From the sequence record OR228459.1: a stretch of DNA of 64,000 bases; one strand, written 5' to 3'. This stretch comes from Klebsiella phage fENko-Kae01. Both the position numbers and the translations under genes were made by a program. Within the stretch, counting starts at the first letter, position 1. Each line of letters starts with the position of its first letter. Shown piece by piece: positions 1,301 to 56,475 of the stretch. The notes under the pieces were generated by a model. The model did not search any database and was not told the origin of the DNA. It saw only the letters and a list, made by a program, of their open reading frames with translations.

Positions 1301-1735
1301 ATGACAGCTAAAATCGAATTCTTCTATACCCACGGTCACCACTACACTGCATCTGGCGTTATTGATGACAGCATTGTAACTGATGGTGATATTCTATCAT
1401 ATTCTTCTACTATTGAAAAAGAAAACCTTGACATTCGTACTATCGGTGTTACTGAAGTTAAAATGAAAGATCTTAAATTTGCCATTGTAACTTATAGTGC
1501 TGGTTCAATGTATGAAGGTTGTACTCAAATCATTCACGGTCTAGTTGAGAAGTTCGATATTATGGCAACTTTCACTGAAGCGGAAAAGATTCGTAAGCTA
1601 GAAGAATCCGAGCGTGAAGCTGAAGAACGTGCACAGTACCGCCGCCAGCGTGAAGCAGAGAAGTACGTAGAACGCCGCAAAAAACGTGCTGCTGAACGTA
1701 AAGCAGAACGTACTAAAAATGGTGCATCTAACTAA
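1301..1735 (+). CDS. hypothetical protein, highly charged Arg/Glu/Lys-rich C-terminus
   Basis: ORF 144 aa, RBS agaggga upstream. Confidence 0.55.
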   Translation: MTAKIEFFYTHGHHYTASGVIDDSIVTDGDILSYSSTIEKENLDIRTIGVTEVKMKDLKFAIVTYSAGSMYEGCTQIIHGLVEKFDIMATFTEAEKIRKLEESEREAEERAQYRRQREAEKYVERRKKRAAERKAERTKNGASN

Positions 1736-8228: not shown

Positions 8229-8723
8229 ATGTTTGAATGGGATCAAGAGAAGTACTTTGATCCTACCGAGGACGGTTTAACTCACATCAATACATATAGT
8301 AAAGGAAGAACCGTATTGGGGAGGATGCTATCAAATTTTGCATACTCCCCTTTTGTGTATGAACCATACGGGAAATTTGATTCAGTTGAGGGATTCTGGT
8401 ACTGGTACTTAACTGGACAGAAGCATGAAGACTTGAGAACAGTAAGTGGTTCATATGCTAAAGTACTTGGTAGGAAATATGAAAGTGATAGGGTAGAACA
8501 TTCTCTCACTGAAGAAACAATTGAAGTAATGCAAGGTGCAATGATTAGTAAGATTGCACAGAATAAAGAACTACAGGAAATGTTAATTAGTAGTACTTTG
8601 CCTCTATGTCATTACTATTTCATGTATGGACGTGTCATAAATCCCTTTGATGGTCATGATTGGTTCTCCGAGACATTGGAGGATATTCGGACGGTATTGA
8701 AACTTGGGACAAATGATGTTTAA
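8229..8723 (+). CDS. NADAR/YbiA-like (DUF1768) domain protein
   Basis: motifs LSNFAYSPF, SVEGFWYW, AKVLGRK typical of NADAR N-glycosidase family. Confidence 0.55.
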   Translation: MFEWDQEKYFDPTEDGLTHINTYSKGRTVLGRMLSNFAYSPFVYEPYGKFDSVEGFWYWYLTGQKHEDLRTVSGSYAKVLGRKYESDRVEHSLTEETIEVMQGAMISKIAQNKELQEMLISSTLPLCHYYFMYGRVINPFDGHDWFSETLEDIRTVLKLGTNDV

Positions 8724-8734
8724 TGTGATATAAT
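8704..8734 (+). promoter_or_regulatory. conserved phage promoter TTGGGACAAA-N13-TGTGATATAAT
   Basis: copy 1 of 11; immediately upstream of ncRNA copy A. Confidence 0.6.
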
Positions 8735-8787
8735 ATGTGTAGATATAACAATTGTGGCTGCTTTATGCAGACGTACTAAAACCGAAA

Positions 8788-9232
8788 CCCTTGAAAACGT
8801 AAAGGGACGATGAGCATGACCACACATGCGAAGTGCAGATGAAACCCGCTCGGCGGCAATGCGGCACTATAAAAGGACACGTAAGGCACGTTAAGTCCTC
8901 TTGATAGACATATGAGGTCACTCACCAAAATGCTAAGGGAGACGTTTATACGTCGCATATAGAGCTTGATCGAATAGGCTTTGTATGATGTGGACTAAGA
9001 CCCCGACCGTTGCATATGACTGTGATAGAGAGAAACAGAGCAACCCGCTTTCGTTCTTTGACCAGTTTTAGTACGCTATAGTTGTATCTAAAATTCAGAG
9101 AAATTCACAATTCGATAATTCCGAGGCTACCAGCGTCAGAATCAATAATCAATAATCAGTACTTTAATTAGTACTTTTTTATTGTCTTCATTCCCCAATG
9201 GGGGGATGAAATTGCCTCTACAAACCTCGTCA
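8788..9232 (+). ncRNA. large structured non-coding RNA-like element, paralog A
   Basis: no ORF; downstream of strong promoter; homologous to 55989-56375 with compensatory stem changes. Confidence 0.55.
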
Positions 9233-9345
9233 GGAATAAAAGTACAATATGAATTGAGTTACGATAATACGAACGTAGTGAGTATTAAGAGTAACGAAAA
9301 TTCTTAGACAATCGTAGATTGGCTAATTAGACAATAGGAACAATA

Positions 9346-10311
9346 ATGAATAAATTAAACAGATCACAAGGTTGTTTAATGGGACTAGCTGTAGGTGATG
9401 CAGTAGGAACTACCTTAGAATTTAAACAAAGAGATTCAGAGAATATCACTGATATGGTAGGTGGTGGCCCATTCCAATTAGAAGTAGGTCAATGGACTGA
9501 TGATACCAGTATGGCATTATGTTTAGGCTATGCATTGCTAGAAGATCATAAAGTAGAAACTTCTGATTGGTCTAGATTGCAATTAGTTAATTACGTTGAT
9601 TGGTACAAAAATGGTTATTGTAGTTCTAATGGATACTGCTTTGATATTGGCGGTACTACTAGTAATGCATTACTAAATTTCATCCGTAATGGTACACTTG
9701 TTAACAACGATCATTTTCTTGATTCTGGTAATGGTAGTTTAATGCGTTTAGCTCCAATCCCAATCTATTATAATACTGGTGCTGATGTTGATAAGTTCAC
9801 CTATTTGTGTTATGCAGCCGATATGAGCAGTTCAACTACACATGCAAGTACTTTATGTCGTCAGTCATGTGTTGCGTTTGCTGTACTACTTAATCGTGCT
9901 TTAAATGGCCCGATTGAATTAGAAAATGTTGAACATGATGTATTACAATCAAAGCGTTCATTACTTTCTTTCCCAGAAAAAGTTTGGGAAGGTCTTGTGA
10001 GTGAACCTTTAGTACTAGAAATCATGAATGGTTCTTATAAGAATAAGTCACGTGATGAAATTAGTTCTAGTGGGTATGTTATTGATAGCTTAGAAGCCGC
10101 TCTATGGTGCTTCTGGAACACCGAAAACTTCCGTGACGCAATCCTATTAGCTGCTAACTTAGGTGACGATGCAGACACCGTAGCGGCAATTACAGGGCAG
10201 ATTGCAGGTGCTTTCTATGGTCTTGATGGTATACCAGATGAATGGGTACAGAAGATTGCCAAGAAAGATGAAATTTTACAATTAGCAGAGGACTTGACAG
10301 ATGGGAATTAA
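9346..10311 (+). CDS. ADP-ribosylglycohydrolase family protein (DraG/ARH3-like)
   Basis: N-terminal GCLMGLAVGDAVGTTLEF and QWTDDTSMAL signature motifs. Confidence 0.85.
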   Translation: MNKLNRSQGCLMGLAVGDAVGTTLEFKQRDSENITDMVGGGPFQLEVGQWTDDTSMALCLGYALLEDHKVETSDWSRLQLVNYVDWYKNGYCSSNGYCFDIGGTTSNALLNFIRNGTLVNNDHFLDSGNGSLMRLAPIPIYYNTGADVDKFTYLCYAADMSSSTTHASTLCRQSCVAFAVLLNRALNGPIELENVEHDVLQSKRSLLSFPEKVWEGLVSEPLVLEIMNGSYKNKSRDEISSSGYVIDSLEAALWCFWNTENFRDAILLAANLGDDADTVAAITGQIAGAFYGLDGIPDEWVQKIAKKDEILQLAEDLTDGN

Positions 10312-12414: not shown

Positions 12415-12446
12415 TTGGGACAAACTAGGATTTATGTGATATAATA
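12415..12446 (+). promoter_or_regulatory. conserved phage promoter TTGGGACAAA-N13-TGTGATATAAT
   Basis: copy 2; precedes tRNA. Confidence 0.6.
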
Positions 12447-21199: not shown

Positions 21200-21221
21200 T
21201 GCCGCTATGCGGCATTTTTCT
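21198..21221 (+). terminator. intrinsic terminator
   Basis: aatgccgc-tat-gcggcatt plus T-run. Confidence 0.6.
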
Positions 21222-21251
21222 TGGGACAAAATCAGGTTCATGTGATATAAT
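21221..21251 (+). promoter_or_regulatory. conserved phage promoter TTGGGACAAA-N13-TGTGATATAAT
   Basis: copy 4. Confidence 0.6.
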
Positions 21252-21260
21252 ATAATTATC

Positions 21261-21346
21261 GGGGCGTATCTCAACGAGCTTCTAACTCGTCTTTAATCGA
21301 GTAACTGGAGTATGCGGGTTCGAGTCCTGCCGCCATCGCCCAGCCA
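21261..21346 (+). tRNA. atypical tRNA-like element (canonical T-arm, anticodon-like hairpin cgag-CTTCTAA-ctcg, poor acceptor/D pairing)
   Basis: gcgggttcgagtcctgc T-arm; no clean cloverleaf by eye; possible pseudo-tRNA or unusual tRNA. Confidence 0.4.
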
Positions 21347-38597: not shown

Positions 38598-38628
38598 TTG
38601 GGACAAACTTAGAAAAATGTGATATAAT
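38598..38628 (+). promoter_or_regulatory. conserved phage promoter TTGGGACAAA-N13-TGTGATATAAT
   Basis: copy 9; drives leader plus tRNA-Leu. Confidence 0.6.
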
Positions 38629-38753
38629 ATTATTATCAGGACGGTAAGATATTCTGGTAAAATTTAGTTGAGTAGCTTAAGGGAGAGCAGCAGGTAATAA
38701 CGATAAGATCACCTGTCAGTGTGGATTTAAACACCACCTCAACAACACAATTT

Positions 38754-38808
38754 AGAATCCAACAGCAATTTTATTCAATCGATTATATGAAAACAAAATG
38801 GATTCTAG
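38754..38808 (+). repeat. tRNA spacer module
   Basis: agaatccaacagcaatt...gattatatgaaaac...ggattctag. Confidence 0.5.
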
Positions 38809-38812
38809 CTTT

Positions 38813-40269: not shown

Positions 40270-41202
40270 ATGATTACTAAAGATGATTTTTATGAATTTC
40301 TGAAAGCGTTTTATAATAAGTTCAGGTCAGCGGGTGAATATTTCAATGTTCACCCATATAATGAATTTCAAAGAAAAGAAAAGGAATATCATAACTTATG
40401 TGATGAATTGGGATTTTATGCTCGTGTTAGTTATAACACCTCCCCTCATGCACACAACATATATGGAATGTACGGAATTGATTTTCGTGATTTAATAACA
40501 TTAGGGTATATTCAAAATAAAGAATATTATTTAGAAATTCGCAATGATGAAGAAAATCCAACTTACTTAACACCAGACGACAGTACTTTTGAAAAGATAG
40601 CTAAAGCATTTATTTATGGTCAAGGAAAATTCACTATTCTTCCAGATGATGTTATTACAATTGGTGATGTGTCTTTAACAGTTTTTGAAATCCATAAAGC
40701 AATTGAAGAATATTCAGTACCACATCGTCTTAAAAAAATAGCAATCGATGATTTGTATGTTTTCCCATCAAAGGGTGACGATTACTCCTTTGGGGTTGGG
40801 GAACGTTACACGGAAGAATATTGTGATATGGTAGAAGATATTGATACACGTTTATCACCTTATTTCTTTTCTGCTGATGGAATAGTGAATGCTGATATTT
40901 CTCCTGAACATCAACGGTACTCATGGGATACATTCAAAGATAAAATAGTTGACGATATTACTGATATGGATGCCGTTTGGATTTGTAAAACAAAACCAGA
41001 TGTTCAATTTAATGTTAACATTGATACTTTAAAAAACTTGATTTCTTCTTTAGTAAAATCTAAAAATCCAGTAGCAGGATTATTAATGATACGTGTATTG
41101 ACACAAAACAAAATCACTATAAATTACACTGATGTTCCAGAATTCAAAGTATTTGTGGAACAACATGGTCAAATAATGCGTGAATTGAGAACAATGCACT
41201 AA
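40270..41202 (+). CDS. hypothetical protein (310 aa)
   Basis: ATG 40270, RBS gaggtataat. Confidence 0.5.
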   Translation: MITKDDFYEFLKAFYNKFRSAGEYFNVHPYNEFQRKEKEYHNLCDELGFYARVSYNTSPHAHNIYGMYGIDFRDLITLGYIQNKEYYLEIRNDEENPTYLTPDDSTFEKIAKAFIYGQGKFTILPDDVITIGDVSLTVFEIHKAIEEYSVPHRLKKIAIDDLYVFPSKGDDYSFGVGERYTEEYCDMVEDIDTRLSPYFFSADGIVNADISPEHQRYSWDTFKDKIVDDITDMDAVWICKTKPDVQFNVNIDTLKNLISSLVKSKNPVAGLLMIRVLTQNKITINYTDVPEFKVFVEQHGQIMRELRTMH

Positions 41203-55900: not shown

Positions 55901-55931
55901 TTGGGACAAACATGAATTAATGTCCTATAAT
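55901..55931 (+). promoter_or_regulatory. conserved phage promoter (TTGGGACAAA-N-TGTCCTATAAT variant)
   Basis: copy 11; immediately upstream of ncRNA copy B. Confidence 0.55.
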
Positions 55932-55988
55932 AAGATATAAACCGATTACGGGGAGTCCAATGGACTCCCTGATGTTGTTATTCCTGAT

Positions 55989-56375
55989 CCACTTGAAAAT
56001 GTAAAGGGCAGATGAGTTGATAATCGCAACGAAGTGCAGATGAAACCCGCTCGGCGGCAATGCGGCACTATAAACGAGAACGTAAGGCACGTAACCTCGC
56101 TAGATAGACATATGAGAGTACTCACCAGATTGCTAAGGGAGTTTATTAAAGGGTTAGTCACACCCATAATAAACACATTCTATCGTGGACTGTATCGCGT
56201 TAGAATGAGTGTAGTAGGACTACGACCGTTGCATAGAACAGAGATAGGGAGAAACAGGGCAACTCGCTTCCGTGTCATTGACAATTCTCTATACAGTAAA
56301 GCCGATGCCACCAGCGTCAAGTTTTAATTCTTCCTCCCCAGCGGGGGGATGAAATTGCCTCTACAAACCTCGTCA
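55989..56375 (+). ncRNA. large structured non-coding RNA-like element, paralog B
   Basis: homologous to 8788-9232; shared blocks gaagtgcagatgaaacccgctcggcggcaatgcggcactataaa, gaccgttgcata, ccagcgtca, ggggggatgaaattgcctctacaaacctcgtca. Confidence 0.55.
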
Positions 56376-56475
56376 ATATAAAAGGTTGACATAATCAAAT
56401 AAATGAATTACACTGAACGAAGTGAAGAGTAATTCCGTTGCTATCGAAGATAGTAACGTTTGATAGGAGTTCAAA

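Follow-up and report, generated by a model that had tools for sequence, protein, structure and literature searches.

Here we describe two paralogous elements in a 64,000-nucleotide (nt) stretch of the genome of Klebsiella phage fENko-Kae01 (OR228459.1), hereafter the window. Copy A (window 8741-9326, + strand) is about 590 nt long and copy B (window 55938-56458, + strand) about 520 nt. It is near-certain that the element is a structured RNA. Its assignment to an apparently undescribed family, a class within the large ornate phage non-coding RNAs (ncRNAs), is strongly supported, and action of the RNA in trans is moderately supported. Taken as a whole, the two copies probably encode large structured ncRNAs of a hitherto unclassified family that occurs only in Rak2-like jumbo phages and acts in trans.

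The homology of the two regions, put at roughly 75% identity in a first-pass annotation made from the letters alone, was borne out, with a mean column identity of 76% over promoter plus element. Both copies score nhmmer E-values of 1e-99 to 1e-139 against the family profile. The same annotation counted two copies, which holds within the window, where nhmmer --max and covariance model R1 find no others, but not in related genomes, which hold 1-5 places. A covariance-model match at window 1427-1541 (− strand, E = 0.4) was weak and was taken as chance. The 22-nt core of the conserved 3' block occurs exactly twice in the window and not once in 100 shuffles. The limits first drawn, 8788-9232 and 55989-56375, fall inside the element, which is longer at both ends. 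Its predicted start is near 8741 and 55938, with a variable 5' hairpin beyond the earlier limit, and two extra hairpins, X and Y, extend the 3' end to 9326 and 56458.

Covariation carries the case for an RNA. We aligned 37 distinct full-length copies, which came from annotated phage records and from IMG/VR and JGI metagenomes searched by pattern. No two of them are more than 97% identical, and the mean column identity is 53%. RNAalifold run on 19 sequences gave 84 pairs, 41 of them with compensatory changes. When all column pairs were scanned for antiparallel covarying runs, the nested helices and both pseudoknots were recovered. The structure used for counting comprises 111 pairs, both pseudoknots included. 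In this structure 93.0% of cells were paired across 26 sequences and 89.8% across 37, compared with 37-43% and 38-43% when the partners were slid by 1-3 columns. Pairs changed on both sides numbered 65 with 26 sequences (slid controls, 22-32) and 66 with 37 (31-40), and the covariation score was 0.379 (0.054-0.069) and 0.387 (0.058-0.083), respectively. The first-pass annotation had named a lack of covariation in more sequences as grounds for giving up an RNA fold; on the 37 homologs, 66 of the 111 pairs are compensatory.

The strand under selection is also indicated. G-U or U-G cells number 243 vs 64 A-C or C-A cells, and this excess, with the uniform direction of the promoters, places selection on the + strand transcript. 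Together with the pseudoknots, the same excess excludes a DNA cruciform, which had been offered as an option beside an RNA. The minimum free energy (MFE) fold of copy A has a z-score of −4.2 and that of copy B one of −3.4. The earlier preference for a functional RNA fold over a decayed gene thus receives strong support from covariation, the two pseudoknots, and the strand-specific G-U excess.

Architecture of the RNA

The fold consists of three multi-helix domains and two pseudoknots, then a C4/G4 hairpin with a near-invariant block of about 35 nt, and then two 3' hairpins. Coordinates below are those of copy A on the + strand unless copy B is named. Domain 1 (8787-8929), defined by RNAalifold and pair counts, opens with H1 (8787-8792/8802-8806), which has the conserved loop GAAAAYGUA. 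A GAUGAG block (8809-8814) is followed by H3 (8814-8818/8825-8829), H4 (8832-8836/8864-8868), H5 (8846-8849/8853-8856), H7 (8874-8879/8894-8899), and H8 (8913-8916/8921-8924). Within this domain, the 3-bp pseudoknot PK2 pairs AUG 8859-8861 with CAU 8909-8911. It is 96-99% paired, all three pairs covary, and it becomes ACA/UGU or AUA/UAU in other members.

Domain 2 (8931-9014) is a four-way junction closed by H10, formed by UGCUAAGGG (8931-8939) and CCGUUGCA (9007-9014). It contains H11 (8941-8943/8952-8954), the long hairpin H12 (8956-8968/8975-8987), and H14 (8991-8996/9000-9005). Compensatory change is seen in 10 of the 12 pairs of H12. H10 (GCUAAGG/CCGUUGC) is unproven by covariation because it is nearly invariant. 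The second pseudoknot, PK1, links the H12 loop (AUCGAA, 8969-8974) to the strand just after domain 3 (UUCGAU, 9111-9116). Its 6 bp are 99.5% paired and all six covary, and it ranked first or second among all column-pair runs in the unbiased covariation scan. Other homologs have UCAUAU/AUAUGA or UUACGU/ACGUAA here, and the PK1 runs seen in the scan also include UCGAAU/AUUCGA and CUGUAU/AUACAG.

Domain 3 (9021-9137) comprises H15 (9021-9025/9105-9109), H16 (GAGAG 9028-9032 with CUUUC 9048-9052, loop AAACAGAGCAACCCG), H18 with an optional insert (9054-9058/9098-9102), and H19 (9123-9128/9132-9137). H15 and H16 are each 100% paired, with three covarying pairs apiece. Covariance model R1 matches copy A at 9005-9140 with 114 bits and copy B at 56224-56321 with 103 bits.

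In copy B the RNA body (55938-56375, + strand) has H0 at 55949-55971, H1 at 55989-55994/56004-56008, and H3, H4, H5, H7, and H8 within 56016-56124. PK2 lies at 56060-56062/56109-56111, H10 at 56131-56139/56226-56233, H12 at 56176-56188/56195-56206, and PK1 (+ strand) joins ACUGUA 56189-56194 to UACAGU 56292-56297. H14, H15, H16, H18, and H19 fall within 56210-56318, and H21 plus the 3' block occupy 56330-56375. The paralogs appear to diverge mainly in peripheral loops and inserts. Differences between A and B that had been proposed as compensatory hold up in H7 (AGGAC/GUCCU vs CGAG/CUCG) and H3 (GCAUG/CAUGC vs GUUG/CAAC), and the C4/G4 hairpins of the two copies differ in the loop only. The long blocks thought to be single-stranded are indeed conserved but are partly paired, for example in H4, H5, and PK2.

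Ahead of the most conserved 3' block, copy A has a terminator-like hairpin, H20 (9158-9183, + strand; AGUACU-UUAAUU-AGUACU followed by UUUUUUAUU). H20 is optional, being present in 19 of the 37 homologs and missing from copy B. Its stem covaries and its run of 6-7 U residues is conserved, so that by sequence it resembles an intrinsic terminator, with a stem below the G-C threshold of our terminator scan. We considered an AGUAC in the H18 insert as an antiterminator for H20. This was rejected, as AGUAC is conserved whatever the H20 sequence and is missing from copies that have H20.

The 3' block (9187-9232, + strand) begins with H21 (UUCAU-U-CCCC / GGGG-GG-AUGAA, 9187-9210) and continues with the near-invariant AUUGCCUCUACAAACCUCGUCAG. 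This block, the C4/G4 hairpin plus AUUGCCUCNACAAAYCUCGUCAG, contains the exact repeat shared by both copies and is conserved in all homologs. RNAalifold proposed a helix closing the 5' and 3' parts, GAUGA/UCGUC, between 8809-8813 and the 3' block. None of its pairs is compensatory, and at two positions it is disrupted in 8 of 36 sequences, by GUUGAG variants and by the RaK2, L043, and Yen_C variants; we did not retain it. Pairing of the block with GAGG or GAGA runs was set aside as low-specificity purine/pyrimidine matching.

Hairpins X and Y complete the element. In copy A, X is formed by GAAUU (9251-9255) and AAUUC (9299-9303), which enclose an inner hairpin and a loop with conserved ACGAACGNAGUGAG, and Y (9304-9326) reads UUAGACAAUC-GUA-GAUUGGCUAA, both on the + strand. 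In copy B (+ strand) both appear in the MFE fold, X as GAAUUAC 56405-56411 / GUAAUUC 56429-56435 and Y (56436-56458) as CGUUGCUAUC-GAA-GAUAGUAACG. Hairpin Y has a 10-bp stem and a GNA loop. For both hairpins the sequences of A and B differ completely while the pairing is kept, and within the window these motifs are confined to the element.

Distribution in jumbo phages and relation to other large RNAs

Both regions are 98-99.8% identical to sequences in four Salmonella jumbo phages of 337-350 kb, Munch, 7t3, SE_PL, and PHA46. More distant matches are found in 121Q, PBECO4, phAPEC6, EJP2, GAP32, CBB, Serratia BF, Yersinia fHe-Yen9, Erwinia pEa_SNUABM and Hallingskeid, Xanthomonas XbC2, and Klebsiella RaK2, which are Rak2-like or Asteriusvirus-type jumbo phages. 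A blastn search with a 216-nt core placed the element in 69 of 50,697 phage records, at 183 places with 1-4 per genome; up to 5 places per genome are found when another paralog is the query. All but one of these records are 310-386 kb (68 of 69), the exception being a 22-kb Klebsiella phage record. Homologs are confined to Rak2-like jumbo phage records plus metagenomic contigs.

Three paralog types (A, B, and C) were examined. Munch (MK268344.1) has a third copy at 40571-41064. There are 4-5 blast places in each of Munch and 7t3 and four in 121Q (KM507819.1), the latter including 192826-193341, about 247.5 kb, and about 326.7 kb. Among 185,579 prokaryotic species genomes (one genome each) there were only two matches. 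One is in a 212,681-bp contig of an "uncultured Enterobacteriaceae" metagenome-assembled genome (CAUSEC010000004.1, L042) and the other in a 198,618-bp contig of Serratia sp. 2723 (NZ_JBNDIN010000009.1, L043). Both contigs are probably jumbo-phage DNA binned or co-assembled with host DNA.

A scan with Rfam and Infernal, suggested at first pass, returned no family match to the element, either for the whole window at gathering score or for both copies at E ≤ 10. With Rfam 15 the window gave only tRNAs at gathering score. At E ≤ 10 the two copies matched no GOLLD, ROOL, intron, RNase P, tmRNA, riboswitch, T-box, or ribozyme model, and what did match (snoRNA, miRNA, a CRISPR repeat) was at chance level. 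The suggested analogy to GOLLD and ROOL therefore stands as a likeness in kind. Membership fails, since no covariance model matches even at E ≤ 10, and the proposed link to tRNA clusters is weak. ARAGORN found no tRNA near the element in 25 loci, with about 1-10 kb of flank on each side, and within the window the distance to the nearest tRNA is 3.1 kb for copy A and 17 kb for copy B.

ROOL and GOLLD are phage and prophage RNAs of roughly 500-800 nt with several pseudoknots or kissing interactions and no known protein partner or function (PMC12286853). Like them, the element is phage-encoded and large, has many helices and pseudoknots found by covariation, and has variable linkers. A further likeness to ROOL is that the PK1 loop-to-strand pairing could be intra- or intermolecular, as covariation fits both. 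Unlike them, it shows no homology and no tRNA adjacency, occurs in each genome as 1-5 diverged paralogs that have promoters of their own, and has enterobacterial and Xanthomonas jumbo phages as its hosts.

A precedent comes from jumbo phage PA5oct, a distant relative of the Rak2-like group that makes abundant long ncRNAs (PMC7318152). By RNA-seq its ORF-free (open reading frame-free) transcripts ncRNA001-004 are 236-619 nt long, and two of them account for 1-5% of phage reads in each phase of infection (PMC7318152). No homology to these RNAs was detected by nhmmer (ncRNA001/ncRNA002 locus) or by a domain-3 covariance model (ncRNA001, 002, and 004 loci), and no conserved structure has been reported for them. 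A covarying loop pairing in a phage RNA also recalls the phi29 pRNA. The pRNA is a single-copy RNA of about 174 nt in the packaging motor, whose loop-loop pairing is intermolecular and builds a ring. In contrast, the promoters of the present element look early, there are several paralogs, and there is no link to packaging genes. We found no description of this RNA in the literature, a search that did not extend to the candidates listed by Fremin et al. 2023 (PMC10690425).

To our knowledge, few very large RNAs of bacteria or phages have complex tertiary folds proven by covariation, the main examples being OLE, GOLLD, ROOL, raiA, and HEARO. Each large RNA that has been solved gave unexpected biology, such as RNA nanocages and the IscB guide RNAs. 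We know of no other large RNA described as several diverged paralogs per genome, an arrangement that raises questions of specificity and hetero-assembly. The family is present in culturable phages of E. coli, Salmonella, and relatives (121Q, PBECO4, phAPEC6, Munch, 7t3, GAP32, CBB, and RaK2). Because these include coliphages and Salmonella phages, the RNA is directly testable.

Promoters, genomic context, and mode of action

As first noted, both copies lie downstream of a strong promoter, a match to the sigma-70 type that reads GGGACA-17-TATAAT, with −10 hexamers that end at 8734 (A) and 55931 (B). The first conserved hairpin begins 53 nt (A) or 58 nt (B) past this end. The copy A promoter (8704-8734, + strand; TTGGGACAAA) has a −35-like GGGACA at 8706-8711, a 17-nt spacer, and a TG-extended −10, TGTGATATAAT, at 8724-8734; it scores 10/12 with TG in a consensus scan. 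The copy B promoter (55901-55931, + strand; TTGGGACAAA) has a 17-nt spacer from GGGACA and the −10 TATAAT at 55926-55931, and also scores 10/12. In a leader comparison of 24 copies, an extended −10 promoter was found at the same relative position in every homolog, and its direction relative to the element is the same in every copy.

The conserved unit opens with a AGAUAUAAC-like motif followed by a variable 5' hairpin, H0. In the copy A leader (8741-8786, + strand), transcription is predicted to start near A8741, about 7 nt after the −10, from whose position the start was taken. The leader comparison and MFE fold place the AGAUAUAAC motif and H0 (about 8757-8771) in this leader. In some copies H0 precedes a T-rich stretch and so resembles an intrinsic terminator. 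The leader of 121Q copy C (L022, about 2800-2890) has a terminator-like H0, AAGGTGAC...GTCACCTTTTTTT, and the H0 region of window copy B (55949-55981) was flagged by the terminator scan. A terminator-like H0 could be a 5' stabilizing clamp or an attenuator.

The genes that follow the two window copies are on the same strand. The ATG of an ADP-ribosylglycohydrolase gene follows copy A at 9346, and a ribosome-binding site and ATG of a 288-aa ORF (56476) follow copy B. Such an arrangement raises the best-surviving alternative to a trans-acting RNA gene, namely a cis-acting leader that controls the downstream genes, either as an attenuator or riboswitch-like sensor working through H20 or as a processive antiterminator of the put type. 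Each window copy has a strong promoter before it and same-strand ORFs after it. Gene order at the type-A locus, to which window copy A belongs, is conserved across genera: ORF clustering of homologous loci in other Rak2-like phages again gives a weak NADAR-like gene, then the RNA, then the ADP-ribosylglycohydrolase gene. Several copies head long same-strand gene arrays. The put RNAs of HK022, putL and putR, measure about 70 nt, fold into two stem-loops, and modify RNA polymerase strictly in cis, each working on the polymerase that is transcribing it. They lie just downstream of strong early promoters, two copies in one phage genome. The likeness is in paralogous structured RNAs directly downstream of strong promoters; the present element is about 8 times larger, and one of its lineages is without same-strand genes downstream.

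That lineage bears most directly on the choice. In 121Q, the genes on either side of a fully conserved copy B, endonuclease VII and gene 595/baseplate hub, are both encoded on the opposite strand, and ORF maps of four metagenomic or viral contigs show the same arrangement. A strong bidirectional terminator follows about 65-75 nt past hairpin Y in three of the four contigs, and a bidirectional terminator is also present in 121Q. With only opposite-strand genes downstream, no leader role is possible in these five cases, and a stand-alone lineage between opposite-strand genes favors a trans-acting RNA gene. The downstream genes are also unrelated between paralogs. A riboswitch, T-box, or attenuator would always be upstream of a same-strand gene and carry an expression platform, whereas this element is found elsewhere as well, 18 of 37 copies lack H20, and inspection turned up no covarying antiterminator partner. 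We know of no riboswitch, T-box, or put RNA as large as 500-600 nt with two pseudoknots, which also counts against a leader. On balance a cis-acting leader is an unlikely explanation for the family; a cis role, as attenuator or put-like antiterminator, is possible for some copies.

Several points weigh against a family of trans-acting RNA genes. A gap of 18-20 nt separates the end of hairpin Y from a same-strand start codon in both window copies, and about half of the copies have an internal hairpin plus U-run, covarying and conserved in the 19 copies with H20; both features fit a leader or attenuator. The start and end points of the transcripts of all members are predictions. The near-invariant 3' block is without a demonstrated pairing partner and the closing helix is unsupported. 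Finally, none of 500 shuffles reached the observed covariation values with either 26 or 37 sequences, but because the sequences share descent such controls overstate significance, and the slid-partner control is fairer.

For a trans-acting RNA, the following course of events can be proposed. Host RNA polymerase would transcribe the RNA early in infection, from the same type of promoter that precedes phage tRNA genes. The terminal hairpins, H0 at the 5' end and Y at the 3' end, would stabilize it, and H20 where present would yield some shorter transcripts (about 440 nt) beside full-length ones. The RNA would then act in trans through its tertiary fold, with the invariant junction and loop nucleotides binding a conserved partner or forming a catalytic or self-assembling core. 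More tentatively, and with rather less confidence than in the family itself, we suggest an ornate RNA machine: an early RNA with a ribozyme-grade fold and up to about five paralogs that catalyzes a reaction or assembles an RNA or ribonucleoprotein architecture, alone or as hetero-oligomers. If this were so, PK1 could be an intermolecular contact, and the RNA could act on host or phage macromolecules during takeover.

The flanks of copy A may be of interest in their own right. The upstream gene (8229-8723) has a weak NADAR match (E = 0.006, below the Pfam cutoff) and the downstream gene (9346-10311) is a clear ADP-ribosylglycohydrolase (E = 5e-67). Judged from these domain matches, the ADP-ribose-linked pair may form an anti-ADP-ribosylation (counter-defense) module.

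Remaining alternatives and further observations

A transcription-primed replication origin of the T4 oriF/oriG or ColE1 RNA II type was also proposed at first pass. A persistent RNA-DNA hybrid would here prime the leading strand. ColE1 RNA II is a promoter-driven, folded preprimer of about 550 nt that needs a specific structure, and it provides a precedent for selection at the RNA level. T4 has multiple origins, as there are several copies of the element in each large genome. The element shares with these systems a promoter-driven folded transcript of similar length, multiple sites as in T4, and G-rich and C-rich elements, the strong promoter being followed by an AT-rich stretch and a G6/C4 element. 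However, cumulative GC skew keeps rising across both sites and does not inflect at either, a test that is weak for T4-like phages. The elaborate tertiary fold, two pseudoknots, and invariant junctions go far beyond the needs of a T4-type origin, selection is on the RNA fold, and in half of the copies a terminator-like hairpin precedes the G-run. No sequence feature specific to origin function was seen. An origin is very unlikely, also in the form of an RNA II-like structured preprimer.

It is more improbable still that the element is a diverged form of some known catalytic or mobile RNA (group I/II intron, RNase P, tmRNA, hammerhead-type ribozyme, or the guide or scaffold RNA used by a nuclease or reverse transcriptase). 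The size and pseudoknotted architecture are in the ribozyme range, and hammerhead-like and RNase P-like strings are present, but both proved superficial and no Rfam model of these classes matches at E ≤ 10. For group I and II introns, moreover, both copies lie between complete genes, and as the flanks are intergenic there are no flanking exons. ARAGORN found no tmRNA. No reverse transcriptase, TnpB, IscB, or Cas was seen among annotated genes or Pfam-scanned ORFs adjoining the copies examined. The hammerhead invariant core is CUGAUGA ... GAAA around three helices. A GAUGAG-H3-CGAA arrangement is present here, but the positions matching C3/U4 and A13/A14 vary among homologs. The resemblance to part of E. 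coli RNase P RNA (CGACCGUUGCA...ACAGAGCAACCCGC) was likewise rejected, as CCGUUGC pairs upstream here, in H10, and the topology is unlike that of RNase P.

A decayed duplicated protein gene, or a DNA-level element (cruciform or protein-binding array) without RNA function, has a negligible probability: automatic annotation of some records does place short hypothetical ORFs over the region, but reading frames are unconserved in the 37 homologs, indels are mostly not multiples of three, the curated Munch record leaves both regions as unannotated gaps between genes, and neither the strand-specific G-U excess nor the covarying pseudoknots can be explained by a cruciform. The statement that the regions have no ORF is not literally true, as copy B contains a 97-codon GTG frame and copy A a 60-codon frame on the − strand, but it stands in the sense that the element is not coding. 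The longest open frames vary in strand, frame, and position among the homologs, only 2 of 10 indels between A and B are divisible by three, and neither a conserved frame nor codon-periodic indels, as expected of a protein-gene remnant, were found. A small peptide in the 3' block, MKLPLQTSS, was ruled out by 1-nt indels among homologs. The "hypothetical protein" ORFs over these loci in current records are spurious.

The TTGGGACAAA / TGTGATATAAT promoter was found by pattern search five further times in the window, at 12415, 14743, 21221, 30602, and 38598. It had been said to drive tRNA genes elsewhere, and two of these five sites lie directly ahead of tRNA genes. At 30602 and 38598 the promoter is followed by an ORF-free leader of about 180 nt (to 30813 and 38812) and then by tRNA-Ser (30814) and tRNA-Leu (38813). 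The leaders at 30602-30813 and 38598-38812 could be further small RNAs or long pre-tRNA leaders. At 21221-21345, a tRNA-like sequence comes after the promoter copy (21221-21253). Its T-arm, GCGGGTTCGAGTCCTGC, is canonical, but neither ARAGORN nor the Rfam tRNA model calls the sequence. It may be an unusual tRNA or a tRNA-derived RNA.

Promoters of the type-A copies differ in the GAP32/CBB clade. There, about 75-105 nt upstream of the start of the type-A alignment, a −35-like (A)TGAAACG or TGGAAC replaces GGGACA, with a terminator upstream (L004, L007, L012, L017, L021, and L032). In CBB, TGAAACG has been described as the −35 box that marks a divergent, second class of RpoD-like promoters (PMC5259590), and by this motif the RNA may be expressed with a different timing class in the clade. 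In many copies, a TATAAA(G/T)-like motif followed by GTAC lies just past the invariant 3' block, at window 9233-9250 and homologous positions. It resembles ATAAATA, the late-promoter motif reported for CBB and GAP32 (PMC5259590).

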